A model generated the notes under the pieces. The model saw nothing but the letters and a program-made list of their open reading frames with translations. It was not told the origin of the DNA and did no database searches. 64,000 bases of DNA. Source: an uncultured Planctomycetales bacterium (GTDB lineage: Bacteria; Planctomycetota; Phycisphaerae; UBA1845; PWPN01). The translations under genes were made by a program, and so were the position numbers. The stretch covers positions 19,893 to 83,892 of the forward strand of contig CAZPIO010000008.1 of NCBI GenBank assembly GCA_964586235.1. Reading direction: 5' to 3'. Shown here piece after piece: positions 4,930 to 64,000 of the stretch (position 1 is its first letter; every line of letters starts with the position of its first letter).

Positions 4930-5841
4930 CTATTTCGACGTTGCGCACCAGGGTCTGATGAACTCGATGAAAAATCGGGCGTAGCGGTCGAGGTTCTCGA
5001 TGTCGCCCCCGCCTCGCAGAGGCGAACACATCTCGAAGCCCACCGCGCCGCGGTAGCCGATCTCACCCAATGCCGTGAAAAACTTCTTGTAGTCAATGAA
5101 CCCCTCGCCGGGCGGCACGGCCCGGATTTCGTCGAGGCAGCGCTCGTAGTTGTTGCCGCGACCGGGATGGTGATACTTGAACCGCGGCCGTCTGACATAA
5201 TCGGCAACCGTCGTATGCACGATCCGCGGGCCCATGTGCCGCACGGCTTGGGCCAGATCGTCCCCGTGGAGGGCCACGGACCATGCGTCGAAACAGGCCT
5301 TGCAGTTGGGCCGGCCGACCTCGTCGATCAGGTCCGCCAGCGAAAGATAGTGGGCGGCGATATCGTCATGATTCTGAACCCCGACGATCACGTCAAACTC
5401 ACCGGCAATGTCGCAGGCCTGACGGAGAAACTCCACGCTGCGTCCCCATTGGGCGGTGTATTCTTCGTGATCGTTGGCCGAGCCGGTGAACAGGCGGAGA
5501 ATACGGGCCCCCAGAAGCCGGGCCATCTCCGCCCACTGCCGGATGGCCATCAACTGCATTTCCGCCAGGGGGGCGAACGGCACGCCGCCGCCGGCACGGC
5601 CTGCACCCGGATCGCCATAGCCCGCCAGGCAGGGCACGCTGAGCCGATGCTTCGAGAGAAGCTCCCGGAGCCGCTCAAGCCGGCGACGATCATAGTCCAG
5701 GGGAGACAGGTGAGGCCGCTTGGTCATGAGCATGACCCCGGAGTAGCCCAAGTCAGACGCCCGAGGGATGAACTCCTCCAGGCTCAGCCGAGCCTGCCCC
5801 CAGAGACCGGCATAACTCACCGAATGGAGAACCGCTTCCAT
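4930..5841 (-). CDS. Sugar phosphate isomerase/epimerase (xylose isomerase-like TIM barrel)
   Basis: 303-aa ORF with family-typical layout (MEAVLHSVSYAGLWG..., 'VGVQNHDD', 'GAVGFEMCSP'). Lies immediately upstream of, and co-directional with, the oxidoreductase. Confidence 0.75.
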   Translation of the reverse strand: MEAVLHSVSYAGLWGQARLSLEEFIPRASDLGYSGVMLMTKRPHLSPLDYDRRRLERLRELLSKHRLSVPCLAGYGDPGAGRAGGGVPFAPLAEMQLMAIRQWAEMARLLGARILRLFTGSANDHEEYTAQWGRSVEFLRQACDIAGEFDVIVGVQNHDDIAAHYLSLADLIDEVGRPNCKACFDAWSVALHGDDLAQAVRHMGPRIVHTTVADYVRRPRFKYHHPGRGNNYERCLDEIRAVPPGEGFIDYKKFFTALGEIGYRGAVGFEMCSPLRGGGDIENLDRYARFFIEFIRPWCATSK

Positions 5842-5892: not shown

Positions 5893-6456
5893 TCAGGAAC
5901 CCGAGAGAAACCGCCGCACGCCCGCCTGCAGCGCCTTGGCTCGCTCGGCGGTCATCTCCGCCGGGATCTCGCGGTAGATGTCCGTGATGTCACCAGCCTG
6001 ATCGCGGAGCCGCTCGCAGAACTGGCGGGCCGTCAAACGATCACCCGCGGAGAGTGTCAGACGTTCGCACCACCGCCTGTCGATAAGCAGGTTCCAGTCC
6101 TGCTTGCCAGGCGGAGCGTTCGGCCGATACGAGGTGTCGATAACATCATCACATCTGCCATTGACGTTGTGCTTGCACGGCTTGCAGATGTCGTCCGCCC
6201 CCAGTTCCATGACCAGGGTGATGTCGCGGTGGCTCAGGATCCGCTCGGCCACGGTGTGAACGGCGTGCCCGTACGGGTGCGGCTCAAACTTTTCTCCGCG
6301 ACCGTACGACGTAATGATATCGACGAAGTGATGCGGCTTGATGCGAATCACCCCCTGGTCTCCCGTTGCGCTATGGTTGAGGTCGATGCCGTTCCGGGCG
6401 CCCCCAGCGCAGCCCCAAACAAGACAAGCCAGTACGAACAAGCTCGCGCGAATCAT
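5893..6456 (-). CDS. DUF1284-like Cys/His-rich protein with N-terminal signal peptide
   Basis: 'IRIKPHHFVDII' and 'DDICKPCKHNVNGRCDD' resemble the conserved HH and Cys-cluster motifs of DUF1284. The N-terminus 'MIRASLFVLACLVWGCAGG' looks like a signal or lipoprotein-like leader. Confidence 0.55.
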   Translation of the reverse strand: MIRASLFVLACLVWGCAGGARNGIDLNHSATGDQGVIRIKPHHFVDIITSYGRGEKFEPHPYGHAVHTVAERILSHRDITLVMELGADDICKPCKHNVNGRCDDVIDTSYRPNAPPGKQDWNLLIDRRWCERLTLSAGDRLTARQFCERLRDQAGDITDIYREIPAEMTAERAKALQAGVRRFLSGS

Positions 6457-6918: not shown

Positions 6919-9900
6919 TCATGAGCCTATCAGTTTGGCGGCTTCGCTGCGTTCCGCCTCGGTCAATACGCGATGCTCCTGGTCGATCCGCAGGGCTTGC
7001 TCCAACCGCACCTTCGCTGCCTGCGCTTCCTTCAGCTCGCGCAGGACTCTTGCGAGACGAATCGCGGCATGTGCCTGCGTCGAGGGCAGACCCTTGGCGA
7101 GGTCCAGGCAGCGCTCGAGGTCCCTGCGCGCGTCGGTCCACCGCCCCAGGCGCATCAGAATGGCCCCGCGTGTGTCGAGAAGATGCGGGTCATTAAGATA
7201 CCGGGCGGCGGCCTTGTCGGCGATCTCCAGGGCCTCCTGCGGCCTGCCCAACTGTTCGCCCAACAACCATGCCAGGTCATTGCTGGCCCGCTGGTGGAAA
7301 GGCTCCAGTTTGAGGACATCGTGGTATGCAGCAGCAGCAGCCTCCAGGTCGCCTGCCTGCCGCGCCGCCTCCGCCCGTGCGATGTGCCCTTCGGTGTAAT
7401 TCGGGAACGCGGCGACGAGTTCATCGGCGACCTTGCGTGCCGTCAGAACGGCCTGCTGGTCACCCGAATTCACCAGAGCGCTCGCGGCCACCAGCAACGC
7501 CGCCGGCCGATCGGGATTCTCCGAGCGGTAATCCGCCAGAAGCCTGGGGACGGCGTCGAATTCCTTCCGCGCGGCCAGCAGGTTGACGCGGGCGGCGAAG
7601 ACGGCCGGGTTACCCCGGGCCATCGATTCAGCGCTGTCGATGCAGGCTGCGGCCGCCGGCAAGTCTCCGTTCGCGCGGTGCAGATCGGCCAGCATGAGCC
7701 GGGCGGCCGCACTGCCTCGCCCCTCTTCGCTCCGGCAGAACGCGTCAAGATGCTCTATGGCCTCGTTTCGTCGCCCGGAGGCGGTCAGGATCTCCGCCCG
7801 CACAACGTGGAGCATCTCGTGGCCGGGGGCAACCTTCAGCGCGTCGTCATTGAGGGGCATTGCCACGTCGAATTCCCCTGCTTTAACCGCAAGGGTTGTC
7901 AGCAGACCGCAGGCGGCCAGGTTTTTGGCATCCCTGCTCAGTACCGCTCGAGCCAGCGCCCGGGCAACCAGATCGTTGCCTGCCTCGGCCTCGACTTCCG
8001 CTCTCATAAGGAGAAGCCGGGGATTACCGGGGTTGGCTTCCAGCGCCCGATCAAGCCGCTCCTGAGCCTTGGCGGGGTCCCACCGAGCGCGAGCCAATTC
8101 CACAAGCCGCAGGTGAGCATCCACGTTCCCAGGATTCAGCCCGGCAGCGTGCTCGAGAAGTGTCTCCTCCTTACCCAGCCTTTCCCCCATGTCCGCCGGT
8201 TTCGTGTCGGTCGAAAGCAGACCGTTGTGAAGAGCGAGCAGATCGGCGTCATCGGGCGTCTGAGCAAGGAGATCCTCAAGCATCGCCCGGCCCCGGCTTC
8301 GCATCCCGGCTTCCTGGCTGTCCAGAAGCTCCTTCACCAGGCGCTTCTGAAGACCGACCGCGTCCGGGGCTTTCTTCAGCCCGGTCTCCCAGGTGGCGAT
8401 TGCCTTGGCCGAATCGCCGCGGCTGTCGTGGAACCTGCCCAGCAGTTCATAGCCGGCCGCGACCGCGTCCTCCATCTGGGTCAGATGAGCATAGTCGGCC
8501 TCGGCGAGGTCGTACTGCTTCATCGCCTGGTGAAACTGAGCCCGCAGCAGATATGAAGCGAAATCCTTGCGTCGGTCGACTGCCGCGTTCATCACCTCCA
8601 GCGCTTCCTTGTCCCGGCCTTCGGCGTGCAGGATCTCAGCCCGTGCGGACACTGCCCCAAATGAATCCGGCTCAATCGACTGGGCCTCGTCGAGAAGCTG
8701 CATCGCCCTGTTCACATCCTGGCCGGCACCGTAGACCAGCCTGGCCAACACGACCCTCGATGCCGCGTCCTTCGGGTCAGCGGCGACGAGCACCTCGACA
8801 TCCCGGATGGCCGAGTCTGTATCACCTGCCCCAATGGCAACGCTCACTGCCTGCCGTCTCATGTCAGGAAGGGCGCGCATCTGCTCGGGGACCTGCCTCA
8901 GGATCTCCGCGGCGGGCACGTAGCGCCGCTGACGCAGCAGCAGCCGGACGAGCCTCTCGGCCACCTCCGCCTGTGCTGTCTGGGCCTGAAGATACTGCCG
9001 GTAGGTCTGCTCCGCGAGATCGTCCTTGCCGATCAGCTCCTGCATGGCCCCGAGCATCATGACCGGCTGGGCCCAGGCGGGGTCCGCGGCAATGCAGGCG
9101 TTGAGGTGCTCGGCAATCTCCGCCTCCTGCGCCGCCGTCTTGCTCCGCGCCTCATCGGGTGTCCCCTGCGAGGTTGTATGCAGCAGGAGACGGGCCTGCT
9201 CCAGGTGCCATCGGAACGGTCTGTCACCGCCGATTGCTTTCAGCTCGTCGATCAATCCCTGGCTCAGCTTCGAGTCGGACAGCACCTCGGGAATCCGCAG
9301 AAGAGACATTCGGAGATCCAGGTCCTTCGGCCGCTCCGTCGCCAACTGTTGAAGCAACTCGATGCCTTTCGGCCGCTGCCCCTGGGAGAGGAGGAATTGA
9401 GCCAGAGCCTTGGCGGCGAGAACCCTCTCCTCGCCCGCAAGAGCTGAGCACGCTTCCTCCAGAACAGACCGAGCCTCATCTTTTCGCCCGAGACGCACGT
9501 AGAGTTCCGCCAGGGCCATTCGCGGCATGGCCACATCCCCCTGCCGTTGGATGGCCCCTTTCATCAACGCCGCTGCCTTGTCGGCAAGGTTCTTCCGTTC
9601 GTAACACTGCGCCAGCATCAGTTCCGCGGCAAATGGCCGATCGCACTCCTTGAGTGCGGTCTCAAGATCGGCGATCACGTTGTCGAGATACCCCTGGCGG
9701 GCACCGATCGTGGCTTGCAGGAGGCGGACATCCACAGACCGCGGGTACTGCTGGCGCAGGACGGTCAGCTCTCTGAGCAAGTGGCTGCCAACCTCCTGGT
9801 CGGCCCCGCGGGCAAGCCAGACATTGACGCTCAGGCGTATTCGTGCCAGGCTCTTCCCAAGGTCGGCCGGAGATGACTGCTCAGCCAGGGTGGCATACTT

Positions 9901-41045: not shown

Positions 41046-43124
41046 TCATACAAGCTGGCTCTGGCCGTGCATGCCTCGGCTGCGCAGGGCCGGTCGCCGG
41101 ACGGGATCACTGAAAGCGATCACGCTTCGCAGAGCAGTGTTGCCGTCGACCGTGCATCGTGCGACAAGCGTTACGGTCGGAGTCTTCCTGTGGTATCCGT
41201 CACTCACCCACCCCCCGATGGGCGCCTCGCTCCCTTCCAGCGTGTGAATCACCAGCCGCTCATCGAGTTCGAAGATCAACTGTCCGGCGCCCGTGTCCAC
41301 GGCGAACCTGTTCGCTTCGTGCTCGAGGACGCGGCATTGCGGGGCGAGGTGGAAGAACAGCTTCACCTCATGTTGCCCGGCCGTGATGAGCTCATCGAGG
41401 ACCGACAGGCTGCGGGCGGCGCCGTCCAGTTCCAGCCGGCGCCTGTGAATCACCGGCGACTTGAGACGCGTGTAGCCGTCATGCTCGCCGACGACCGTCC
41501 CCCCGTTAGCGCTGACCTCAAAGTGCAGACACCGGGCCCGAGCCCGTGCACCCCACAAGAAACGCCCGGCCATGACAGATTGATCGCAGTCATCGACCAG
41601 AAGCGTATTGTGAGCTCTGGTGCTCCGGAAATACTCCCGCCAGGCCGGAAAGCGGAAGTAGTCATACGTTCCGGGGTCCACCAGCACCGGCGTGCCGGAC
41701 AGGCGCAAGGTGAAGCTCAGCGCGTCGGCATGGCCGTGACCGGCCAGGGGCGGCAGTCCAAGCTCGCCACAGTCAAAAACGACGCTCATACAGCCGTCGC
41801 GGCCTGCTTGCCCATGCTGCAGCACGTAATACCCGGTTTGTGGAAAGCCCTTGCTGGACAGCCGGCCATCCCATGCCCTTTTGTCGTCGTACACAAGCCG
41901 TTCATATGCCTCCCGGCCGAGCGACCACAGGACCGATTCACCGGATCTGGACGCCAACGCCCTGAAATCGCTGCGATCCCACAAGGCTGCTCCTACCGCC
42001 AGCAGGCTTCGAACGCGGTCACCGCCTTCTCCGAGATCCAGCACGTACCCATCGTCACAGTCGCCGAGCATCGGCGGCCCGTCACCACCTTCGGTCAGCG
42101 CGGCCAGGAAACCGAACATCCTCCCCAGCCGTTCCCAATAAGATGGCGGGAAATCGCAGCCGCAGTTCCGAGCCGCCAGTCCTGCCACCAGAAAGAACTC
42201 GAGTACAAACAGGTGGTACCCCATTGACAACTCGCGGTGGCCGCCGTCCTCGTGCGTTTGCGTCTGCATTTCTCGCAGCAGAATCGCGCGGGCCTCCTGC
42301 CTCCAGGCATGCGCCCCACGAAAGCCGGAGAAGTAACAACTGCCTACGAACACGCCGGCCGCTTCGCCGACCAGATGGTTGCCTACGGAGGAATAGCGCG
42401 AGTACTTCCTGGATATCTCCCACAGATGACGATACACCGCTGTCAGCAGCCTGGCCTGGAAATCGTCGCTGAGCCGCAGCGCCGGCCGAATCAGCTCCAG
42501 TGCCCAGACCCAGTTGATCAGGCGAATGGCCAGCTCCAAGGGGCTTCGCCAGTTCATCCCGCGACCAAACGGGCATTGTTGCAGCCAGCTCTCCAGGTGC
42601 TCAATGACCTTGTGAGCGTAAGTCGGGTTGCCGGTGAGCCGGTAGGCGCGGCCCAGTACCACCAGGTGCTGATGCCGGTTGAGCTCCCACACCAGCTTGG
42701 CATCTCCGGTCAAAGCGTAGTCACGATAGTCGATCGCCGCGGCAGACCCGAGCGGAGTCGGTTGCTGAGCCTCATACTCGTAGTTCCAGTTCAGGGGACG
42801 CTGCCCTGGCACATCCAGGATGCTGAGGAAACGCAGGTGATTCCCGCAGATCGTGTCAGCCCGCGCGATCAGAGCGGCACGCCACCCGTCGGCTCCCGGC
42901 AAATCCTTCAGTTGTTCTGACGACGGGAGCTGTCTCAGCACGTCTGGGCATGTGGGATCTCCATTACAGCCGGCCGTTGTAAGACGTCCAGGGGAGATCG
43001 GCCTGGCCCGCAACCACAGCAGACACCGGTCTGTCCAAGCCTGGATCGCAGCCCCGGCGCGCCAGCAGACCTCCGCGGGCGACATGAACCTGAGCCGGCG
43101 AGCGTACCACTGCAAAGACTGCAT
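41046..43124 (-). CDS. Heparinase II/III-family protein (alginate-lyase-like N-domain plus Hepar_II_III C-domain)
   Basis: 'NWRSPLELAIRLINWVWAL', 'VGNHLVGEAAG' and 'GHGHADALSFTL' are family hallmarks. The ATG at 43124 has a GGGAGGA SD. Confidence 0.85.
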   Translation of the reverse strand: MQSLQWYARRLRFMSPAEVCWRAGAAIQAWTDRCLLWLRARPISPGRLTTAGCNGDPTCPDVLRQLPSSEQLKDLPGADGWRAALIARADTICGNHLRFLSILDVPGQRPLNWNYEYEAQQPTPLGSAAAIDYRDYALTGDAKLVWELNRHQHLVVLGRAYRLTGNPTYAHKVIEHLESWLQQCPFGRGMNWRSPLELAIRLINWVWALELIRPALRLSDDFQARLLTAVYRHLWEISRKYSRYSSVGNHLVGEAAGVFVGSCYFSGFRGAHAWRQEARAILLREMQTQTHEDGGHRELSMGYHLFVLEFFLVAGLAARNCGCDFPPSYWERLGRMFGFLAALTEGGDGPPMLGDCDDGYVLDLGEGGDRVRSLLAVGAALWDRSDFRALASRSGESVLWSLGREAYERLVYDDKRAWDGRLSSKGFPQTGYYVLQHGQAGRDGCMSVVFDCGELGLPPLAGHGHADALSFTLRLSGTPVLVDPGTYDYFRFPAWREYFRSTRAHNTLLVDDCDQSVMAGRFLWGARARARCLHFEVSANGGTVVGEHDGYTRLKSPVIHRRRLELDGAARSLSVLDELITAGQHEVKLFFHLAPQCRVLEHEANRFAVDTGAGQLIFELDERLVIHTLEGSEAPIGGWVSDGYHRKTPTVTLVARCTVDGNTALRSVIAFSDPVRRPALRSRGMHGQSQLV

Positions 43125-53565: not shown

Positions 53566-53935
53566 GTCGAGTTCCTTGCAGTGAGGAGCCCCATTCGAAA
53601 TCCAATCGCGCACAATCATCGCGAATCACCAGAAGCTGATAACCTTAACCGGCGTTGGGCGCTGCGCAAAGCAACCGGTGCCGGCCTGATAGAAGAAGCT
53701 CGGAAGTCATCTGTCTCAGTTCGGCAGAACAACAAGCCCATCATTTCAGGAGCCGTTGAAGTCTGCCCGCACCTGCACCGAGTGACCCCGATCACGTCTG
53801 CCGTTGTCGCCCGCGAGCCGCGGACCGCTGGTCAGGCCCTGAAGCCCCGCGCCGACAAAGCTGATAGAATGACACAATATGGCCGGGCAAGAGTTGCATG
53901 GGCAATGCCGGTTCATGATGTTTGGAGACCCCCGC

Positions 53936-56056
53936 ATGCCTTTCTGCAGAATCGTGCTCCTTGCGCACCTGGCCCTGATGACCGTGCCGTCGCTTGCCGC
54001 TCAGTCGGCCCCTTCTTCCGTTCCCGAACAGTTTCCGAGATTCGTTGTGCCGGGCCACGACAAGGAAATGGACAGCCTGCGGCGGCTGTTCTGGTTGCAC
54101 TACCGGCCGGCTGGCCCGTTGATCACATTGTGGGACGAGTGGATGCCGATGTCGACGCTGTGGCCGGCCATGGGCGCCGGGCGTGAAATGGAGTCGATGC
54201 GTCTCCGCTGGGCGGCGGCACTGGCCAGTCGTGGGGTGAACAACGAGGGTTACGTCCACACGCACCAGCACGATGGCCCGGCTCACGCCGAGGGCTGGCC
54301 GTTCCCCCTCTGGATGCAGGCCGGAGGGATCGGCTGGCATTTTCGCGGCACGGGCGTGTCGGGATACGACGCGCCGCCGGCCACCCCCGACGGATGGACG
54401 CTCACAGGGGCGACCAGCGGCGGTGTAAATGAAAAGGGCTGGGTCGTCGACCTGACTGCCGCCCGCTCCACCGCCCAGACACCCCCGTTCGCTGTCGAGG
54501 CGAGAATCGCCCCCTGGCTCCGGCTGAACTGGTGGGCCGGCGGACTGGCAGGCGCCAACTGTTACGTTGAGTGGACGACAAAGGACCAGCCGGACTACTC
54601 ACTCGAGCGCCGATGCTATTTCACACCGGCGATCGGCCGCGACAAGGCACAAACGCACCTGCCCATGGGAGGCGACGACGGAGCACTCAAGACCGACGCC
54701 GTCGAGACCCGGACCATGATCCCGGTATGCCGCCTGCCGGCCTGGAAGGGAACCATCACCGGTCTGCGAATCGGCTTCGACAACCCGGGGCCCGCGAAAC
54801 TGGTCATCAAGTCCTTTCACACGGCCTGCGACACGCGTCACAACATCAATAACTCCAACTTCATTCGCGGCTGCCACGATCATTTCCTGTGGTCCCTCGA
54901 CTACACATTCCTGCGCGATCAGATCGGCAGGTTGCGCAGCGCGATGCGGTTCATGATGCGCGAGTTCGACACGCGCAACCGCAAGTGCATTTACACAACC
55001 TGGCCCGGCCACGAAGGCCGCAGCGGCGTGCGGTATGTCGACGGCAAGAAGGTTGTGGTCGCCGGCGAAGGCATCGGCAGCAACTACTGGGACCTGCTGC
55101 CCTTCGGCGGCGAGGATGCGCTCGCGACGATCTACTACTACGACACCCTGCTGGATCTGGCGAACCTGGAAGAACTGATCGCCGCTCATCCCGGGTGGAA
55201 CATCGCCACCGGCGCCGACGCTTTTGACCCGGCGGATCTGCGCCGCCATGCACAGGAGGTGAAGAGCTACGGCACCAGGCGGTTCTGGAACGAGAAGACC
55301 GGCCGTTTCGGCACCGTTGACCTCGACGGCCGGATGCACGATTACGGCTGGACGTTCCTCAACAACGAAGCCATCTACTACGACTTCGCCACGCCCGAAC
55401 AAGCCCGGTCCATCCGCGACTGGATCAGCGGACACCGCAGCGTCGCAGGTGATACCTCACAGGGACCGGATATCTACCACTGGCGTTTCGGCCCCCGCTC
55501 ATCCACGTTGCGCAATCTCGACTACTACTTCTGGGGCTGGTCGAATCCGGAATCGGTCCCTTGGGGCAACCAGGTGCAGGATGGCGGCGGCGTGCTCGGC
55601 TGGTCCTATCACGACCTGATGACCCGCCTGCTGGTCGACGGGCCCGACGACGCCTGGCGGCGGCTGCGGGAAATCCTCGTGTGGTTCGACGAGACCCAGG
55701 CGGCGGGCGGCTATCGCGCCTACTACAGCGACCCGGCCAAGGGCACTCTGCAAGGCGGCAATGTCCCCGGCGGCCTTGGTCTGGACAGGGAGTTCTTCGA
55801 GTCTATCCTGGTACCCCAGGTGATGCTCTATGGGTTCATGGGGTTCAGGCCGACGGCCGAGGGATGCGAGGTTGCGCCCCGATTCCCGGCCGACTGGCCC
55901 TCGCTGACCATCACCCAAATCCACCTGCACGACCATCTGCTGGACATCACGGCAAAGCCCAACGCGTTGCAGGTAACCGATCACGACACAGGCGGTAGCC
56001 CGTTGCGGATTAAGGCCCCGCCCGGCTGGACGGTGACCAGGAGCAATGCCCGTTGA
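53936..56056 (+). CDS. Secreted putative glycoside hydrolase, (alpha/alpha)6-barrel-like
   Basis: Signal peptide 'MPFCRIVLLAHLALMTVPSLAAQ' with a GGAGAC SD. 'NYWDLLPFGGEDALATIYYYDTLLDLANLEEL' resembles the catalytic-barrel helices of rhamnosidase/trehalase-like six-hairpin enzymes, and a similar block occurs in the 59855-62482 protein. The functional call is tentative. Confidence 0.5.
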   Translation: MPFCRIVLLAHLALMTVPSLAAQSAPSSVPEQFPRFVVPGHDKEMDSLRRLFWLHYRPAGPLITLWDEWMPMSTLWPAMGAGREMESMRLRWAAALASRGVNNEGYVHTHQHDGPAHAEGWPFPLWMQAGGIGWHFRGTGVSGYDAPPATPDGWTLTGATSGGVNEKGWVVDLTAARSTAQTPPFAVEARIAPWLRLNWWAGGLAGANCYVEWTTKDQPDYSLERRCYFTPAIGRDKAQTHLPMGGDDGALKTDAVETRTMIPVCRLPAWKGTITGLRIGFDNPGPAKLVIKSFHTACDTRHNINNSNFIRGCHDHFLWSLDYTFLRDQIGRLRSAMRFMMREFDTRNRKCIYTTWPGHEGRSGVRYVDGKKVVVAGEGIGSNYWDLLPFGGEDALATIYYYDTLLDLANLEELIAAHPGWNIATGADAFDPADLRRHAQEVKSYGTRRFWNEKTGRFGTVDLDGRMHDYGWTFLNNEAIYYDFATPEQARSIRDWISGHRSVAGDTSQGPDIYHWRFGPRSSTLRNLDYYFWGWSNPESVPWGNQVQDGGGVLGWSYHDLMTRLLVDGPDDAWRRLREILVWFDETQAAGGYRAYYSDPAKGTLQGGNVPGGLGLDREFFESILVPQVMLYGFMGFRPTAEGCEVAPRFPADWPSLTITQIHLHDHLLDITAKPNALQVTDHDTGGSPLRIKAPPGWTVTRSNAR

Positions 56057-56160
56057 GTATCAGATGCAGCGTGCGGCACCCCGGAGAATCGATATCAGCA
56101 GAGGAACGTGGAGTCACCCCCCGGGCGCAGAGAAGTGCTGAACCAGTAAGGGGATTGTCT

Positions 56161-57732
56161 ATGAAACGTCCTGTAATCGTCCTTTGCGCCGTGTCGGCGA
56201 TCATCTCGTCGGCCGGGTCCCTCGCGACTGCGGCATCCGCGGCTGAGATCACCAAGCCGGAGAAAAGGAAAAACATCTGCCTGATCCAGTTTGACAGTTG
56301 GGACGGACGGGTCCTGGGCAGCATGGGGCACGCGGTGGTGAAGAACGCCACGCCCAACTGTGACCGCCTCGCCGGGCAGGGCGTGCTGTTTCGCAACGCC
56401 TATTGCAGTCATCCCATCTGCTGTCCTTCGCGAGCCAATATGTGGGCCGGCAAATACACCCATCACCTCGAAAGCTGGAACAACTACAAAGGGCTGGAGC
56501 CGGGCGTGCCGACCTTCAAGGACCTCCTCGAAAAAACCGGCTATCGTTTCGCCTCGGATGAGGGCGGGATCGGCAAGCACGACTATCGCAGCGGGGGGCA
56601 CAGCCAGTTGGCCCGCATCACCGCCTGGGCCGGGACGGCGAATATCGCCCTTCCGTTCTTCCGGCCCGAGGCCCCCAGGATCATCGAGAGCCAGGAGAAG
56701 AGGGTTCATCGGTCCGATTGGGAGCGGGTGGACGAGGCGTGCACATGGCTGACACAGAACGCTCGCGGCGAGCGGCCCTTCTTCCTCTACGTCTCGATGG
56801 GAATTCCCCATCCCGCTTTCGTGACCTCGCGGTACTGGCTTTCGCGGATCAACATGGACGCGGTGACCCTCCCGCCGGCCGACGACGAAGACCACCCCGT
56901 CATGCAGTTTCAGCGCACCGGCAAGAACTGGCAGCACGGTTTTGACGATGACACCGTTCGCAAGACCCGGGCCATCTACTACGCGATGTGCGCGGAGGCC
57001 GATGCGATGGTCGGGCGGTTGCTGGACAAGCTCGATGAACTGAGGCTCGACGACGAGACCTACGTCATCCTGATCAGCGACCACGGCGAAAACAACATGG
57101 AGCATCGCCAGTGGTACAAGATGAACATGTACGAATCATCCGTGCGCGTGCCAATGATCGTAGCCGGCCCGGGCCTTCTGAAGGGTACGACCATCGACAA
57201 CATCGTTTCGCTGATCGATCTCTATCCCACCCTCATGGACATGGGCCAGACCGCCGGGCCGGATGACCTCGACGGCGAATCCTTGATGCCGCTGCTGACC
57301 GGCCGAACAACCAGGAGCCGGAACTGGGCTCTGACGCTCTTCACCGGATGCAGCGCGAACACGTCAATGTTCATGCTCCGCCAGGGGGATTGGAAATACG
57401 TGGCCTATCCCGGCTACAAACCCCAGTTGTTTAACCTGAAGGACGACCCCGACGAGGTGCACAACCTGGCCGGCCGGCGGGCCGAAGTGACCGGCAACAT
57501 GGACCGTCAACTGCGTTCGATCGTGGACTACGAGGAGGTTCACGGCCGCTGGGTTCGCTACTGCAAGTCGGCGTTCAGGCAATGGCGCGAGCAGATTAAG
57601 GCGCACCCCGTTCACCTGAAGGAATACGGCAGCGACATCCCCGCCGCCACTTACGAACAGATCATGGCGAATACCTACATCGGCTGGAACGACGATTGGG
57701 CAAAAAAGATTGACGACTGGCTCGCCCAGTAG
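56161..57732 (+). CDS. Sulfatase (formylglycine-dependent arylsulfatase family)
   Basis: Signal peptide 'MKRPVIVLCAVSAIISSAGSLATAASA'. Active-site 'CCPSRANMWAGKY' (C-x-P-x-R). 'ISDHGE' metal-binding block. Confidence 0.9.
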   Translation: MKRPVIVLCAVSAIISSAGSLATAASAAEITKPEKRKNICLIQFDSWDGRVLGSMGHAVVKNATPNCDRLAGQGVLFRNAYCSHPICCPSRANMWAGKYTHHLESWNNYKGLEPGVPTFKDLLEKTGYRFASDEGGIGKHDYRSGGHSQLARITAWAGTANIALPFFRPEAPRIIESQEKRVHRSDWERVDEACTWLTQNARGERPFFLYVSMGIPHPAFVTSRYWLSRINMDAVTLPPADDEDHPVMQFQRTGKNWQHGFDDDTVRKTRAIYYAMCAEADAMVGRLLDKLDELRLDDETYVILISDHGENNMEHRQWYKMNMYESSVRVPMIVAGPGLLKGTTIDNIVSLIDLYPTLMDMGQTAGPDDLDGESLMPLLTGRTTRSRNWALTLFTGCSANTSMFMLRQGDWKYVAYPGYKPQLFNLKDDPDEVHNLAGRRAEVTGNMDRQLRSIVDYEEVHGRWVRYCKSAFRQWREQIKAHPVHLKEYGSDIPAATYEQIMANTYIGWNDDWAKKIDDWLAQ

Positions 57733-57953
57733 CCGTCGCCCCGGATCAAACTGCAAACGGACTCCAGCGAACGGTTGCCGGCTCTGTCCGTTCGACATAT
57801 GCTGCTCATGCGCCTGTGGGCCTCAGAAAACGAGCGGCCAAGAAGGAGCATCATCGCGCCCGAACCAGACAAGGCTCGAATGCCCCAAGCCCGAGCAGTG
57901 AATTCAACGGCTCGGCAGGCACCACCATCACACATTGATTGAAGGAGACGACA

Positions 57954-59516
57954 ATGAGGCATCGAAAATGGTCACGCATCTGCCTGTGCTTCATGATGGG
58001 CTTGGGCTGCCTGGGCTGCGCCGCCCGGAACTCCTCCACGCCGATCGATGTCGGTTCACGCAAACAACTATTTGTCGACGATCGGTTCATCGCATCCAGC
58101 CGGGGCGTGCAACTCACCATGAACCCGCCGGTCAAGATGAACGAGCCCGTTCTCGCCAACTACATCCCTTGGGAAGGCGAGGAGGGCGCTTCGGCCATTT
58201 CCTACTCCTCGGTCCTCAAGGATGGTAACAAGGTCCGCATCTGGGGGGCGGGCAAGGCCCTTCTGCCGGTCTGGCTCAAGGCCGACGGCCCGATCGTCGA
58301 TCTCTATGCCTACGCCGAATCCGCCGACGGCATCCACTTCACGAAACCCGATCCGAGCCTGTACCGCTACGATGAGGCGCGAGCCGAGGTCGGCAAGCAC
58401 GGCCGCACCGGCGGCGTATCGGTCTGGTTCGACCCCCAGGCACCGCCCTCACAGCGATACAAGACGCAGGCGAAGTTCTATCCGCCCGGAGCCACCGCTC
58501 AATTCCATATCTGTGCCTCGCCGGATGGGTATCGTTGGACGCTCCTCACCAAACCCGCCATTAAGGAAATGGACACCCAGAGCGTTGCCTTCTGGGATGA
58601 AAGCATCCGGAAGTATGTCCTCTATACGCGCAAGAACCCACGCCGCCACACGCCTCAGCGGTACCGGGTCGTCCGCCGGTTTGAGTCCGTCGATCTCCTG
58701 GACTGGCAGAACGAGGTTTTTGTGATGCAGGCGGACGAGATCGACAAGTCGATCTACGTGTCTCCGACGCCCCAACCGCCTGTGGATTACTATGGGGCAG
58801 CGGTCTTCAAATACCCGGCAGACTCCCCTGACGGCGTGTACATCATGCTCGCTCAAGCCTTCTGGCACTGGCAACGCCGGCCGCTCGAGCAACGGCGAGG
58901 GGGCCATCCGGATCACAAGTTCGAATTCGAGGTTCTGGCCCCGGCCACATTGGATGTCCGGCTGGCAGTGAGCCGGGACGGCGTTCACTTTCAGCGGGTC
59001 GGCGGCAGAAAGTCGTTCATCAGCCTCGGCATGGAGGGCACCTTCTCCGCCAAGCGAACCTGGGCGCTGCCGAACCCGATCCGCATGGGCAGCGAGCTAT
59101 GGATCTACTACTTTGGGGAAAACCGCGACCACGACGGTTTTATCGATCCCGTCGCATCCAGGTACTTGTGCGGGATTGACAGGGCGATCCTGCGGCTCGA
59201 CGGGTTCGTGTCGGCCGACGCCGATTACGCAGGCGGCGAACTGGTGACTCCGCTGATCACCTTCCAGGGTCGGCGTCTGGAGCTCAACCTCGACGCCGGC
59301 GCGGGAGGCAGTGCCCGCGTCGAGCTGCTGGACCGGCAGGGTCGGCCGATCAGCGGATATACCCGTGAAGATGCGTCGCCCCTCTACGGCAACTCGGTTC
59401 GCATGCCGGTAAGCTGGCGCAGCGGAACCGACCTCCAGTCGTTGGCGGGCAAGCCCATCCGTGTCCGCTTCCTGATGCGCGACTGCAAGCTGTACGCTTT
59501 CCAGTTCGTGAACTGA
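57954..59516 (+). CDS. Secreted lipoprotein, possible beta-propeller glycoside hydrolase-like protein
   Basis: Lipobox-like 'CFMMGLGCLGCAA' and an AAGGAG SD before the ATG at 57954. 'KQLFVDDRFI' and 'GSELWIYYFGENRDHDG' recall 5-bladed propeller GH-like families. No catalytic motif is securely recognised. Confidence 0.45.
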   Translation: MRHRKWSRICLCFMMGLGCLGCAARNSSTPIDVGSRKQLFVDDRFIASSRGVQLTMNPPVKMNEPVLANYIPWEGEEGASAISYSSVLKDGNKVRIWGAGKALLPVWLKADGPIVDLYAYAESADGIHFTKPDPSLYRYDEARAEVGKHGRTGGVSVWFDPQAPPSQRYKTQAKFYPPGATAQFHICASPDGYRWTLLTKPAIKEMDTQSVAFWDESIRKYVLYTRKNPRRHTPQRYRVVRRFESVDLLDWQNEVFVMQADEIDKSIYVSPTPQPPVDYYGAAVFKYPADSPDGVYIMLAQAFWHWQRRPLEQRRGGHPDHKFEFEVLAPATLDVRLAVSRDGVHFQRVGGRKSFISLGMEGTFSAKRTWALPNPIRMGSELWIYYFGENRDHDGFIDPVASRYLCGIDRAILRLDGFVSADADYAGGELVTPLITFQGRRLELNLDAGAGGSARVELLDRQGRPISGYTREDASPLYGNSVRMPVSWRSGTDLQSLAGKPIRVRFLMRDCKLYAFQFVN

Positions 59517-59569
59517 ACGGTTGGCCTTCGCGGTGCCTGGCAGGCACTCGGTGGTCAATGACGCAGGCC

Positions 59570-59695
59570 CATGGACCATTCGTAAAATCGGCAGGAGCGG
59601 TCACTTATGTTATGACCACTCCTGTCGCCCGAAGGCAGCTTCAGCCGCCAGACCCCAGGAGGACTCGAACTGCTGTCTCCAGGATGAGAACCTGA
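59570..59695 (-). repeat. Copy 1 of a ~125-nt repeat: tRNA-like 3' half (degenerate T-arm) plus 7-bp hairpin plus terminator-like hairpin
   Basis: Aligns by eye with 63008-63132 ('ccat.cgtaaaa...aggagcgg.cacttatg..acc.ctcctgtcgcccgaaggcagcttc.gccgcc.ga..cccca.g.ggactcgaac..c.gtctccaggatgagaacctga'). The hairpin at 59594-59622 has one mismatch and, read on the minus strand, a weak T-run. Confidence 0.6.
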
Positions 59696-59854
59696 CCGAG
59701 GCCATCAGTAAGGCTTTCAACCGCAAGACTTGCGAACACGCGGGCGATTTCTTTGTGGATTTCTTGGTGTCCATGGAGAAGGCATGTCCTGATCTGGTTG
59801 CAGTCATCAGTACTCGAAATCGCTAACATGTGGTCAAAACGGGAGCACACAAAA

Positions 59855-62482
59855 ATGAACTGGCGAATCCTGCAGATGACATGGCTCTGTGGCGGCGTTT
59901 GTGCCTGCGGCCCGGTTGCTCCGGTTTCAGCCCAAGAAGCGGCCGTCAATCCGACGGAACAGAACGTTGCCTTGGCGTCGGTGGGTGCTGTCGCGGTGGC
60001 TGATTCCGAGTACGCCGGGTCGGTGTATCAGCGTCCAGGCGGGACAGTCAGGCAGATCAACGACGGCGTGTGGCCCGAGCCCGGCAAATCGTCACCCTCG
60101 AATCGATGGGTGGCCTCGATCTCCGATCCGCATCCTCATTGGGTCTGGATTCGCTTCCGCAAGCCGGCACGGATCACCCGCGTGGTGCTCCACGGTGTCG
60201 ATCTGACCACGCCCCCAGTCGATTTTGTCGGCCAGTACAGCCCGAACGGCGGCCTCGAGGTGCGGAACCTGTTCAAGGCCACCGGCAGCCGGATGAATGC
60301 GGATACTCTGACCACGGAGCAGTCTTTCCCGCCCGTTGTCACCGACAATTTCCGCCTGTTCATCGGGAAGTCGGCGGACGTCAAGCACTCTGATGAGACC
60401 GAGCTCTCCGAGATAGAGGTCTTTGGCCACTTTGTCTCGGCGGCAACCCAGCCCTCCCCCGCTACGAAAGCACAACAACCGCTTAAAGCAATCCTCCAGC
60501 CGACGACGCAGCCGTTCAGGTTCTTTCGGACCAGGCGAACCGAACGGGAAATCGAATTCAGCTCGCGATGGCTTCGTGTGGTGATGGCCGCGGACCGACC
60601 ACAGATCGTCGCCCTCTGCTGGGACAGTCTCGGCGAGGGGAAACTGGATCTGAATCTGCTCAAGCCCGGGACCGAGGGCGGCGGGCGGCTGTGCAGTGCC
60701 CCGCTCTTCTCCCAGGTCATGTTCGCACAGAAGGCCGAGGTCGAGTGCGAGGGCAACGTCGTCCGTTATCTGACGGATCTGGCCGACGGTCTGCCCGCTC
60801 GCTGGGAGGTGCGAGTAGAGGAGAAGTCGATACGGATGGCCGTCAGTTGGTCGGCCGCCGACGAAACGGCATTTCGCATACCCCCCGCCGTGTCCTTCGC
60901 CTTCGATGTGAGCCGTACGCCGACGGCTCCGCTGGCCAACCCGCGGCCGGGCCTTTCGGCACCCCTGCCCTGCCTGCTTCATGCTGCTGACCAAGGCAGC
61001 CTCTTGATGCGACGTCCCGATGGCGGGTTGTCCTCTCTGAAGGGTCGTCGCTCTGCGGCCCCGAAACAATGGGATGCTTGTATCGTCGAGGAGGCCGGCC
61101 GTCGTTCGGCCGATGGGCTCTACATTCTGCCTGTAGGACCGCGCGGTTGGGAACTGGCCGCTTCGGTGGAGGGTGTCACACCGCTTGCGACCCTGGCTGG
61201 CGAGGATGCCCGTCTGCGAGGTCTGCCACGTCATTGGCTGAACGTCTTCCAATACCGCGACGACATCGGGATCCTCAGCAACAACATCATCAGCGCCAAT
61301 GCCCTCAGTTCCTGTCTGCTCTCGTTCATCGAACCCGTGGTGTTCACCCCACCGCTTCCAGGGGGCGTGGAGGCCGTTCAACCGGCCCGCGAAACCCTCG
61401 ACCGATACATTGCCGGGGCTCGCGGTTACGGAACCGAAGGTGACCAGCCCTGGATCTTTCTCGATTCATACCCGTCCTTGCTGATCGCCGCCTGGGACGT
61501 GATCCGGGTGACCGGAGACCTGGAGTTGCTCGGCAAATGGCTGCCGAGCCTGGAGCAATATGCTGCACACATCAAGAAGCAGGACCGTGACGGCAACGGG
61601 GTGCCGGAGGGGATCAAGCCGGGTAGGTCAGGCGTGGTCCACTGTCCGAATACCAACTGGTTTGACCAGATCAATTTCGGGCACGAGGATGCCTACTCAG
61701 CGGCGCTCACCTACAAAGCACTGCACGATCTGGCTGACCTTGAGCGGCTGGCGAACAGGCCGCAGCAGGCCAATGATTACCAGCGCGACGCGGAGAAACT
61801 GCGCGCCGTCTACCTGCGGAATTTCTTCAACCCCCAGACAGGGATCATCGCTGGGTGGAAAGACGCTGACGGGAAGCTGCACGATTACTGGTTCGTGTTC
61901 GTCAACGGCGCGGCTGTCACCTATAGGCTCGTCCCGACCGACAAGGCGAATGAAATCGTGGACCGGATCGAAGCGAAGATGCGCGAGGTCGGGTTCGATC
62001 GCTTCGATTTGGGCTTGCCGGGCAATCTGGTGCCGATTCGCAAAGCCGATTACGGCGTCAACACCCTCGGTACCCCTCGCGAAGAAGACGGGAGCGACAG
62101 CTACGGCGTCTTCGAGAACGGCGGGGCCACTGCGGCCATGGCCTACTTCTATATTCAGGCCCTCTATCAGCTCGGTCGGCGTCAGGAGGCTGACCGCATT
62201 CTCTGGCCGATGATGAAGACCTATGCCGCTGGCGGTTTTCAGAACGGTATCGAACCGGGCTGGGAGATCGGTGGTGAATGGCGCCACTGGAACGGCACCC
62301 CCTCCGGCTATGAAGGGTTCCTGGCGGATTGCTACTACACCCAGTTGGCCCTCGTGACCGGCTACTACGGAATCGGCTTCGGGCCCGATGGTTTCCATCT
62401 CGAACCCTGGTCACCGCACAAGGGCAAGACGATTCGGCTCGGGTTGCGGTACATGGGCCGGATCGTCGAGGAAATCCGTTGA
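59855..62482 (+). CDS. Secreted protein with N-terminal F5/8 type C (discoidin/CBM32-like) domain and (alpha/alpha)6-barrel glycoside-hydrolase-like domain
   Basis: Signal peptide 'MNWRILQMTWLCGGVCACGPVAPVSAQEA'. 'NRWVASISDPHPHWVWIRFRKPARITRVVLHG...PVDFVGQYSPNGG' is discoidin-like. 'NWFDQINFGHEDAYSAALTYKALHDLADLERL' and 'ENGGATAAMAYFYIQALYQLGR' are six-hairpin-like blocks. Confidence 0.6.
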   Translation: MNWRILQMTWLCGGVCACGPVAPVSAQEAAVNPTEQNVALASVGAVAVADSEYAGSVYQRPGGTVRQINDGVWPEPGKSSPSNRWVASISDPHPHWVWIRFRKPARITRVVLHGVDLTTPPVDFVGQYSPNGGLEVRNLFKATGSRMNADTLTTEQSFPPVVTDNFRLFIGKSADVKHSDETELSEIEVFGHFVSAATQPSPATKAQQPLKAILQPTTQPFRFFRTRRTEREIEFSSRWLRVVMAADRPQIVALCWDSLGEGKLDLNLLKPGTEGGGRLCSAPLFSQVMFAQKAEVECEGNVVRYLTDLADGLPARWEVRVEEKSIRMAVSWSAADETAFRIPPAVSFAFDVSRTPTAPLANPRPGLSAPLPCLLHAADQGSLLMRRPDGGLSSLKGRRSAAPKQWDACIVEEAGRRSADGLYILPVGPRGWELAASVEGVTPLATLAGEDARLRGLPRHWLNVFQYRDDIGILSNNIISANALSSCLLSFIEPVVFTPPLPGGVEAVQPARETLDRYIAGARGYGTEGDQPWIFLDSYPSLLIAAWDVIRVTGDLELLGKWLPSLEQYAAHIKKQDRDGNGVPEGIKPGRSGVVHCPNTNWFDQINFGHEDAYSAALTYKALHDLADLERLANRPQQANDYQRDAEKLRAVYLRNFFNPQTGIIAGWKDADGKLHDYWFVFVNGAAVTYRLVPTDKANEIVDRIEAKMREVGFDRFDLGLPGNLVPIRKADYGVNTLGTPREEDGSDSYGVFENGGATAAMAYFYIQALYQLGRRQEADRILWPMMKTYAAGGFQNGIEPGWEIGGEWRHWNGTPSGYEGFLADCYYTQLALVTGYYGIGFGPDGFHLEPWSPHKGKTIRLGLRYMGRIVEEIR

Positions 62483-62608
62483 GAGGGACGAGAGGTTGCT
62501 GGGTATTGTGGGTGGCCACGCCCTGATGAAATCGGGGTGCCGCCATGTCTGCCGGCCACGGGGATCCCCGCCTGTTCTCCCTCACATCATTGGCCCCGGT
62601 CCCATGGC

Positions 62609-62986
62609 TCAGAGTTGATTCATGAGTTGCTGTTCATGAGGCCGCTGCGGCTCTGGCTGTGGCTGCTCAAGCGGAGCCTGCATCTGATCCGTGTACTGCT
62701 CCACACTTTGGGCCTGCTGCTCCAGGCCGCTGACCATCTCTGCGATTGGATCGGACGAGAAAAACGAATCGACAATCTGCTCCAGGGGCCCAGAATCCAC
62801 CATGTCATCCAGAGCTACCCGTTGCCCTCTCCCAGCAGCTTCAGTGTCGGCATCTTGCCGATCCATGCGCCACTGCTGCATCAGGTGCTCGAACAACCCC
62901 GGGGTCATCAGGCAGTCTTCGTATCCTGGCGGCGGCTCAGGCCACTCAACCCGTTCCGGTGGCCTGAAGCCGTCATCGGAGGGCAC
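62609..62986 (-). CDS. Small acidic Gln/Glu/Pro-rich hypothetical protein
   Basis: 125-aa ORF with a GTG start (internal ATG at 62908). No recognisable domain. It is more protein-like than the overlapping plus-strand ORF 62537-63013. Confidence 0.35.
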   Translation of the reverse strand: MPSDDGFRPPERVEWPEPPPGYEDCLMTPGLFEHLMQQWRMDRQDADTEAAGRGQRVALDDMVDSGPLEQIVDSFFSSDPIAEMVSGLEQQAQSVEQYTDQMQAPLEQPQPEPQRPHEQQLMNQL

Positions 62987-63007
62987 TCCGGAATCAACAA
63001 CTCACAG

Positions 63008-63132
63008 CCATGATCCATCCGTAAAAACAGAAGGAGCGGCCACTTATGACCGCTCCTGTCGCCCGAAGGCAGCTTCGGCCGCCGGATACCCCCAAGGGGA
63101 CTCGAACCCCTGTCTCCAGGATGAGAACCTGA
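63008..63132 (-). repeat. Copy 2 of the ~125-nt repeat: well-formed tRNA-Glu(CUC)-like 3' half plus hairpin plus intrinsic terminator
   Basis: Read on the minus strand: anticodon-arm-like 'tcagg-ttCTCat-cctgg' (63116-63132), variable 'agac', T-arm 'agggg-ttcgagt-cccct' (63095-63111), acceptor 3' strand 'tgggggt' plus 'a' (63087-63094). Then hairpin 'gccgaag-ctgc-cttcggc' and the terminator. No complementary 5' acceptor, D-arm or encoded CCA is present. Confidence 0.6.
63021..63056 (-). terminator. Rho-independent terminator (minus strand)
   Basis: Minus-strand 'ggagcgg-tcataagtgg-ccgctcc' is a perfect 7-bp GC-rich stem (63033-63056), followed by 'ttctgttttt'. Confidence 0.5.
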
Positions 63133-63284
63133 TATACGAGAACGCGGTTTTTGGCCTGTTTTCTGTAAGTCGCCCCAGAGCGACTATTTGCCACTAAGTT
63201 ACGCATTTCAAGCAACTTACGTCTTTCCTGTTGTTGCTCGTTCTTGCCAGCCGTTTCCTGTCTCAGACGGTCATTTCGGCAGAA

Positions 63285-63306
63285 ACTATGGACAGACTAT
63301 GGACAG
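63285..63306. repeat. Perfect tandem 11-mer 'actatggacag' x2
   Basis: Read directly. It lies in the unusually AT-rich, ORF-poor stretch next to repeat copy 2. Confidence 0.8.
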
Positions 63307-64000
63307 GAATCAGTGATCACGGGCTGCGCCGACATGGGAAAAACGACCATCCCGGGGTGGGGGAAACGCATCGCTTCCGCCGCACGACTTGCGTATGGGC
63401 TCCGTACGAGTCGGCCGCGGATGGGACGGCAGCAGCCAAACCCGCCCGTAGGTAGCCGCATTCAACCTGTCCGATGACGTGACCTGCGGTTTACAAAGTC
63501 TACCAGCCGGCTCTTTTTATGTCGCATTCCTTAAGGAATACGCGTTTTTGTGCCCGTGAAGGCCAACGTCATGCCAGTTGCCTGCCAGTGATACCCTGCG
63601 GCGCGCACGGCGCCATGCACTTTGGGGGCACACTTTGGGGCGCATTCTGGCCAAGCCGCGCCGCAGTTCTCCAATTCAATCTCCAGTCGCCCCCCAGAGC
63701 TATGCCTGGTTTGGTCCAGCCTGTCCCTTTCGACAATTTCGCGAGACCGAGCGGGGCGAACACCTGTGGGCAAGAATCCCATCCGGTACCCTTCGCATCC
63801 AACACGGCACATGGCTCGGTCCTCCCGGTCTATGTAGCGGTTGAACTCAGTCGCGAATTGCAGCGCCACACGAGTCCCGGTGCGCCCCGACCTGCGTGCA
63901 TAGCTGCAACCTGCGGTGTTTCACCGACCACGGCAGGGTTCAGATTGCCATAAGCCGTTCAATCTGGGTGGCCCGCCGATGGGCATCCTGCTCGTTGTCA

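Follow-up and report, generated by a model that had tools for sequence, protein, structure and literature searches.

Two direct repeats lie about 3.3 kb apart in a 64,000-nucleotide (nt) stretch of contig CAZPIO010000008.1 from an uncultured Planctomycetales bacterium (the whole stretch is called the window here), and each carries a tRNA-like module followed by hairpins and a terminator. Both units are very probably truncated copies of one ordinary Phycisphaerae-type tRNA-Glu(CUC) locus, including its trailer and intrinsic terminator: the right-hand unit (copy 2) was cut by what is probably an integrative element, the left-hand unit (copy 1) is an older, decayed copy, and neither is a functional RNA gene. 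The main value of this assignment is that it clears a false lead, an odd tRNA-like module with a terminator being accounted for by a truncated tRNA-Glu(CUC) gene with its own trailer. Feature coordinates are collected in Table 1, and L followed by a number denotes a compared locus.

The repeat pair itself is real. A repeat search returned two ungapped direct-repeat blocks with 91% and 93% identity (59653-59695/63090-63132 and 59610-59652/63044-63086, respectively), and gapped alignment of both copies merged them into one continuous unit, confirming the pairing. Two invariant cores, a 22-mer and a 24-mer, each occur exactly twice in the 64-kb window, with zero expected from shuffles. A first-pass annotation, made from the letters of the DNA, had described direct repeats of about 125 nt on the minus strand; it saw the pair correctly but drew it too short (59570-59695/63008-63132), as alignment to an intact tRNA locus in a related genome (L023) places the homologous unit at 59543-59704 for copy 1 and at 62962-63135 for copy 2, both on the minus strand. 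On this strand, the two copies share one order: the CUC-loop anticodon stem-loop and a variable region of 4 nt are followed by the T-arm and the 3' acceptor strand, and these by a short and then a long, GC-rich hairpin with a U-tract behind it. Most of this had been recognized at first sight, namely the CUC in the anticodon-arm loop, the 4-nt variable region and the 3' acceptor strand in both copies, a T-arm that pairs perfectly in copy 2 (5/5) and is decayed in copy 1 (2/5 pairs left), and a terminator-like hairpin with a T-run, which in copy 2 was also called by the terminator scanner (63057-63032, minus strand). The supposedly perfect 7-bp hairpin between them, in contrast, has 6 bp in copy 2 (CCGAAG/CUUCGG) and is not kept by relatives. 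The sequences 5' of the two copies are unrelated to each other, and the copies differ in 5' boundary and in age, which makes the original picture of two repeats bracketing a single 3.3-kb element misleading.

Neither copy yields the full cloverleaf of a functional tRNA gene, which needs a D-arm and a paired acceptor stem. ARAGORN reported 0 tRNA and 0 transfer-messenger RNA (tmRNA) genes in the whole window, and no tRNA-Glu 5' half is present in it. At Rfam gathering thresholds, no family was matched in the window; the only hit was a subthreshold tRNA (RF00005) in copy 2, at 28.8 bits just short of the gathering score of 29; its alignment lacks the D-arm, and 5/7 acceptor-stem pairs are G-U. 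Both programs, to which the first-pass annotation had pointed, thus bear out its view that no tRNA gene is present, although its statement that neither copy has a D-arm holds only in part, as copy 1 keeps a D-arm remnant.

The origin of the unit is apparent from its occurrence elsewhere. Scanning a collection of species-representative genomes with a 29-mer spanning the variable region, T-arm and acceptor strand yielded 110 stretches, nearly all of them from metagenome-assembled Planctomycetota, and 104 of the 111 occurrences of the 29-mer sit in intact Planctomycetota tRNA-Glu(CUC) genes. One such gene reads GCCCCCATCGTCTAGCGGCCTAGGATATCAGGTTCTCATCCTGGAGACAGGGGTTCGAGTCCCCTTGGGGGTA, and copy 2 is identical to it from ATATCAGG on. 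When the tRNA part of copy 2 was compared by BLAST with a phage collection, the matches were annotated tRNA-Glu genes only. Importantly for the rest of the unit, L023, a Phycisphaerae genome assembled from a metagenome, contains a complete tRNA-Glu followed by the same hairpin and terminator trailer, so that its positions 6207-6380 align with window positions 63135-62962 at 92% identity over 174 nt. The terminator hairpin is kept at all loci compared, and the small hairpin before it pairs differently at each locus. A 24-mer from the trailer had 0 exact matches in genome contigs and 0 in metagenome contigs, and a degenerate trailer pattern had 0 matches in metagenomes.

The same arrangement at a second intact locus, L118 (a Joint Genome Institute metagenome contig found via cluster mates of the window proteins), explains why conservation runs beyond the tRNA 3' end: in both L023 and L118, the intact gene is natively followed by this trailer and terminator. 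This resolves what had been the first objection to an integration scar at a tRNA gene. One outcome the first-pass annotation had set against its own readings, the unit being the 3' part of a normal tRNA gene, came close to the actual result.

L118 further provides the unoccupied site for copy 2. It matches window positions 54143-62519 with 96.4% identity over 8.4 kb and shares with the window the gene order GH65-like gene, sulfatase, gene for a 520-amino-acid (aa) protein, copy 1 and glycoside hydrolase (GH) gene. At the position of copy 2, ARAGORN finds a complete tRNA-Glu(ctc) in L118, c[8515,8591]. The copy 2 locus agrees with L118 at 96.9% over 196 nt, with trailer homology reaching 62940, and its 49-nt tRNA part agrees with the intact genes in both L118 and L023 at 100%. 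Homology between the window and L118 stops at 63135/63136, corresponding to gene nt 24/25, 3 nt 5' of the anticodon stem. A base-level alignment shows no difference between the window, L118 and L023 once gene nt 25 is reached; 5' of it, L118 and L023 run on into the rest of the tRNA and a conserved upstream region, and the window DNA is unrelated. The L118 sequence beyond the tRNA, including an aminotransferase gene, does not occur in the window.

With an intact gene in L118 and homology ending at 63135, copy 2 is thus the 3' portion of a tRNA-Glu gene that an insertion beginning at 63136 has split. It occupies the ancestral tRNA-Glu locus, where unrelated DNA now takes the place of all that lay 5' of gene nt 25. 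Copy 2 thereby shows three of the five features by which the Islander scheme knows an attR fragment: it is a true part of a tRNA gene, the site is unoccupied in a close relative and the boundary is canonical. The other two, an intact tRNA gene regenerated in direct orientation at the far end and a tyrosine (or serine) integrase gene inside the island, would lie beyond the window. The initial suggestion of an att-type scar at tRNA-Glu is essentially right for this copy, and the absence of an integrase between the copies, which had been held against it, no longer counts, as the truncating insertion lies to the right of copy 2, from 63136. The comparison also documents strain-level presence and absence of the insertion between two 96%-identical Phycisphaerae-type genomes.

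Beside the intact tRNA-Glu genes, a conserved block lies just upstream (L118 8592-8660 and L023 6120-6182; GGTTGATCTTT...CTAAG.TA.T). It is probably the tRNA promoter and is gone beside copy 2 of the window.

Several other loci mark tRNA-Glu(CUC) as a recurrent integration hot spot in Planctomycetota. L082 contains a stand-alone fragment with a boundary identical to that of copy 2, and L067, L107 and L112 hold fragments starting at the anticodon stem (all <=3 nt from the stem). Tyrosine integrases (PF00589) are encoded immediately downstream of intact tRNA-Glu(CUC) genes in L018, L031, L071 and L044. On a viral contig, L003, a 29-nt fragment that matches copy 2 exactly is preceded by an integrase gene, which ends 173 nt upstream of it. 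In L022 and L110, the tRNA is accompanied by a direct 20-nt fragment 2.5 kb and 1.35 kb downstream, respectively. A search with the L003 integrase (tblastn) returned no homologue in the other loci or the window. A long 442-aa open reading frame (ORF) in L003 was dismissed as a GC artefact.

A further link between these loci is a tandem repeat beside the tRNA fragment. The inserted DNA of the window carries an 11-nt tandem repeat (Table 1), and L082 carries one as well (TGTCCACTGA/TTGTCCACTGT, 7765-7786), 158/169 nt from a junction that is identical to that of the window. L038, which belongs to the same assembled genome as L082, has an intact tRNA-Glu and, 68 nt later, the same tandem motif (~2615-2638, minus strand). 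Tandem pairs of the TGTCCA type with an 11-nt period are rare, with only 6 in 1.75 Mb scanned. These repeats (TGTCCATAG-type; TGTCCATAGT) look like candidate arm-type integrase sites on the attR and attL of an element family targeting tRNA-Glu(CUC).

The DNA that follows the intact tRNA in L038 (2690-2707, minus strand; TAAGCGTTTGAATCGTAA) resembles the DNA that follows the displaced fragment in L082 (7983-8000; TAAGCGTTGGGATCGTAA). The window is therefore not the only place where repeats reach beyond the 3' end of the tRNA.

We infer that the insert to the right of copy 2 is the end of an integrative element, either a prophage or a genomic island. Such an element would insert by site-specific recombination through a tyrosine integrase at the anticodon-arm sublocation and would bring its own tRNA 3' part, so that a complete tRNA-Glu would be regenerated at the far end (attL). 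Copy 2 would be left behind as a displaced attR fragment, still joined to the original terminator of the gene. The GC content of the insert dips to 55-56%. At the window edge, the tail of a gene points toward the fragment, a layout also seen in L003; its 19 codons are compatible with an integrase C-terminus, at a length too short for testing. A decayed integrase on the plus strand (63519-63953) was considered and discarded, with a tblastn E value of 0.06 in a tiny database and no Pfam match.

Several observations weigh against an integrative element at copy 2. Neither an integrase nor a regenerated tRNA-Glu is seen in the 865 nt of insert inside the window; no ORF in this visible part matches Pfam and none carries the box II motif. 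The inserted 865 nt have no match in phage or plasmid collections, and in the viral collection the DNA of the edge gene, the longer tRNA 3' part and the tandem-repeat motif each had 0 matches. The similarity of the insert flank to L082 is marginal (reached by 7/500 shuffles) and that to L003 is within noise, so that neither was relied on. Moreover, in L082 and L038, no integrase was found up to a distance of 4.5 kb and 2.7 kb, respectively.

The break at 63135/63136 might instead stem from a rearrangement of the chromosome (an inversion, a translocation or a deletion) that broke the tRNA-Glu gene, or from a chimeric join in the metagenome assembly. The lack of an integrase, a regenerated tRNA and database matches in the visible insert would fit such an origin, as would the NCBI assembly, in which orthologues of the genes flanking the intact tRNA of L118 lie on another contig (87,524 bp) than the window genes (105,676 bp). 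Contig breaks, however, are commonly caused by elements present in only some strains, and in the source assembly the inserted element may be where the locus was divided between contigs. A random break would also have to coincide to the base with the fragment boundary of L082 and to share the anticodon-arm region with the boundaries in L067, L107 and L112. Together with tandem repeats at equal junction distance in the insert flank of the window and in L082, and with integrases repeatedly targeting tRNA-Glu(CUC), this leaves a rearrangement or misassembly improbable, and insertion of an integrative element remains our preferred explanation for copy 2.

Copy 1 has a different history. Its homology to the intact locus runs from the D-loop through the end of the trailer (59704 to 59543), and its D-arm remnant (TGGCCTCGG) matches the tRNA (TGGCCTAGG) at 8/9 positions in register, a score reached by 16/20,000 shuffles. 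Of the T-stem, 3/5 pairs are broken with no compensating changes, and the terminator retains a 13-bp stem with only a 4-U tract and was not called by the scanner. L118 has copy 1 at the same place with 95.7% identity (95.1% in the trailer part), so the copy predates the split of these strains. Between them, it is 95-97% identical, compared to 94-97% for intergenic DNA and 94.4% for third codon positions. Copy 1 is thus an older, decaying pseudo-locus that drifts at about the neutral rate.

Fragments of this kind attract spurious ORF calls as well as near-threshold tRNA matches. In L118, a 71-aa 'gene' called on copy 1 (5468-5683) is a spurious ORF. The same applies to an ORF at 62691-63197 (plus strand) of the window and to ORF ends in L018, L031 and L071, which run over tRNAs or fragments; the reverse-strand ...PQGDSNPCLSRERAMS is the tRNA read backwards.

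Could the units, or at least copy 2, be small-RNA genes with a tRNA-like 3' module and their own terminator, as the first-pass annotation had also proposed? A strong terminator hairpin ends both units, the anticodon arm and T-arm of copy 2 are intact, and a promoter-like hexamer pair lies upstream of that copy (63211-63183). A promoter scan, however, returned 2 sites versus 1.2 expected in shuffled sequence, that is no excess, and a truncated tRNA gene with its native trailer already accounts for the whole unit. Structured RNAs are expected to show compensatory changes and conservation above neutral. Here, the broken T-stem pairs of copy 1 are uncompensated and joined by two 3-nt deletions, its conservation between strains is no better than that of intergenic DNA or third codon positions, and the middle trailer hairpin differs at every locus. 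In addition, the 5' parts of the two putative RNAs are unrelated, and Rfam holds no matching family. The idea of paralogous small RNAs is therefore unsupported, and we regard it as the least probable of the explanations considered here. There is a very slight chance that copy 2 is transcribed from the promoter-like site in the insert (63211-63183, minus strand), giving a stable tRNA-half-like RNA of ~150-190 nt; such an RNA could titrate tRNA-processing or tRNA-modifying enzymes, or act for the element.

Two further RNA candidates were rejected. ARAGORN and Rfam gave no tmRNA or two-piece tmRNA, and a functional tRNA lacking a D-arm is at odds with G-U in 5/7 acceptor-stem pairs and with the existence of an intact gene in L118.

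Between the two copies lies an islet of 2.9-3.3 kb that consists of the GH gene and a doubtful 125-aa ORF only. In L118, no gene other than the GH gene lies between the tRNA-Glu locus and copy 1; the order there is intact tRNA-Glu with trailer, GH gene, copy 1, and in the window it is copy 2, GH gene, copy 1. With direct att-type repeats derived from the target gene and no integration or transfer genes, the islet has the layout of a cis-mobilizable element (CIME). Copy 1 would then be the downstream repeat of an earlier recombination that placed a ~2.9-kb GH segment directly behind the tRNA-Glu gene. This event could have been of the Campbell type or mediated by an integrase, acting via ~170 nt of homology that includes the trailer; single-crossover integration of a circle with ~170 nt of homology would give exactly this structure, with the trailer in the repeat. 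The GH segment would accordingly represent an integrase-less, CIME-like islet to which a newer element has since been added in tandem. We infer such an origin for copy 1 with less certainty than the insertion at copy 2.

A number of findings speak against an acquired islet. Among the relatives examined, no genome without the islet at this locus (an empty site) was found. The islet shows no compositional anomaly, and the GH gene has normal GC content and continues a same-strand polysaccharide-degradation cluster. L023 shares the flank beyond the repeat with copy 2 and none with copy 1, which fits a local partial duplication at least as well as integration. On that alternative, part of the tRNA-Glu locus would have been duplicated locally, and copy 1, the redundant product, would since have been shortened at its 5' end and decayed; the GH gene in between would be ordinary chromosomal cargo, and copy 2 would still owe its truncation to a later insertion. 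It would also sit well with an islet that lacks an integrase or any other mobility gene, and with the 5' end of copy 1, which lies in the D-loop and not at a canonical crossover sublocation.

Other evidence is harder to reconcile with a duplication. The standard signature of an island is a tRNA with a short gene segment behind it and then a 3' partial copy in direct orientation; this layout recurs at L022 and L110, and a plain tandem duplication would have duplicated the intervening genes too. In every other relative examined, the orthologues of the GH and 520-aa genes stand in unrelated contexts, so that the position of the GH gene here is lineage-specific: GH orthologues in L001 and L002 (77-81% identity) and 520-aa gene orthologues in L114-L117 all occur without the repeat unit, and around neither gene is synteny conserved in a way that would show the ancestral state. 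The tRNA locus of L023 has no GH gene within 1.7 kb. A segmental duplication, which the first-pass annotation had listed for the pair as a whole, is hence possible for copy 1, given the flank that L023 shares with copy 2 only, but we consider it a good deal less likely than not to be the origin of this copy; copy 2 is explained by insertion instead, as seen from L118. If the GH gene does lie in an integrase-less islet with tRNA-derived repeats, this would be one way in which polysaccharide-degradation genes could move.

Table 1. Features of the two tRNA-Glu(CUC)-derived units and their surroundings; positions are those of the window
Feature	Positions	Strand	Description
Copy 1, trailer and terminator	59543-59652	-	Stem-loop ~59593-59623; unit end lies 27 nt from the 520-aa gene's stop codon (convergent gene)
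Copy 1, tRNA part	59653-59704	-	D-arm remnant (59696-59704), 3-nt deletion, intact anticodon arm, damaged T-arm, acceptor strand with 3-nt deletion
Glycoside hydrolase gene	59855-62482	+	875-aa secreted protein; six-hairpin fold, rhamnosidase/mannosylglycerate-hydrolase type; Pfam PF17389 and PF22422, weak PF00754 (discoidin)
421-nt segment	62520-62940		6-nt direct repeats GGCCAC at ends; absent from L118; carries most of the 125-aa acidic ORF (62609-62986, minus strand)
Copy 2, native trailer	62962-63086	-	Small non-conserved hairpin, terminator stem-loop (63032-63057), T-run (63022-63031), ~60 nt of downstream flank
Copy 2, tRNA part	63087-63135	-	Gene nt 25-73: last D-stem base, anticodon arm, 4-nt variable region, T-arm, 3' acceptor strand, discriminator A
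Insert end	63136-64000		865 nt, leaves the window at its right edge; absent from L118
Promoter-like hexamer pair	63183-63211	-	TTGAAA, 17 nt, AATAGT; ~50-75 nt upstream of copy 2
Tandem 11-nt repeat	63285-63306	-	CTGTCCATAGT twice (minus sense), 160/171 nt from the junction
Gene tail	63940-63999	-	Last 19 codons (...DNEQDAHRRATQIERLMAI and stop); gene begins past the window edge and points toward copy 2

The 125-aa ORF has no Pfam or NCBIfam match, and neither L118 nor L023 conserves it; it probably does not represent a real gene, or else is strain-specific. The polysaccharide-degradation run around the islet extends over 41046-62482 and comprises a heparinase II/III-like gene (41046-43124, minus strand), a gene with a GH65 C-terminal domain (53879-56056), a sulfatase gene (56053-57732), the 520-aa gene (57954-59516) and the six-hairpin GH gene. 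A distant homologue of the 520-aa protein is named GH32 by one source.

The closest known counterparts are genomic islands in tRNA genes. The Islander resource (Hudson et al. 2015) reports an anticodon-centred attP in 2083 of 3919 islands and a 3' tDNA fragment in 3760 islands, and distinguishes attachment-site sublocation classes that include the anticodon loop or arm and the T-loop/acceptor junction (PMC4383910); integration into tRNA genes with such a footprint goes back to Reiter 1989 and Williams 2002, as cited there. As in these islands, copy 2 is an exact tRNA 3' part in direct orientation that is bounded at the anticodon arm, the gene at this site is intact in a close relative, and integrases lie by the same tRNA in relatives and on a viral contig. 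Unlike in typical entries, the body of the island would be situated beyond the window here, together with its integrase and the regenerated tRNA, and the repeat shared by copy 1 and copy 2 runs ~110 nt past the tRNA 3' end into the terminator, which is longer than the usual identity block.

Partial tRNA genes of the attR type are also known to score near the thresholds of tRNA models and to be mis-annotated (PMC9897764, RNA Biol 2023). Copy 2, just under the Rfam cutoff, resembles them in score and in its probable origin, a tRNA gene being partly duplicated when foreign DNA integrates. The published examples are mostly from archaea or model bacteria with complete islands, whereas the window holds two fragments of different age, 3.3 kb apart. 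CIMEs and tandem accretion at att sites have been described by Pavlovic et al. 2004 and are reviewed in PMC5704250. The GH islet shares with them a short segment between att-type direct repeats, the absence of integrase and transfer genes, and a second element at the target gene's end that would turn the locus into a tandem array. It differs in being a candidate, in a repeat that includes flanking DNA beyond the tRNA, and in that a local duplication is possible.

In the actinomycete elements pSAM2 and SLP1, the identity between attP and attB presumably extends from near the anticodon loop through, and sometimes past, the tRNA 3' end, and we liken the window repeat to it; these elements belong to another phylum, and no integrase is associated with the repeat in the window. 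Overall, the pair formed by copy 2 and copy 1 is very probably a standard, known footprint of mobile DNA at tRNA genes and not a new RNA. It is slightly unusual only in the length of the repeat, which includes the terminator of the gene, and in having a GH gene as the sole cargo of the islet.

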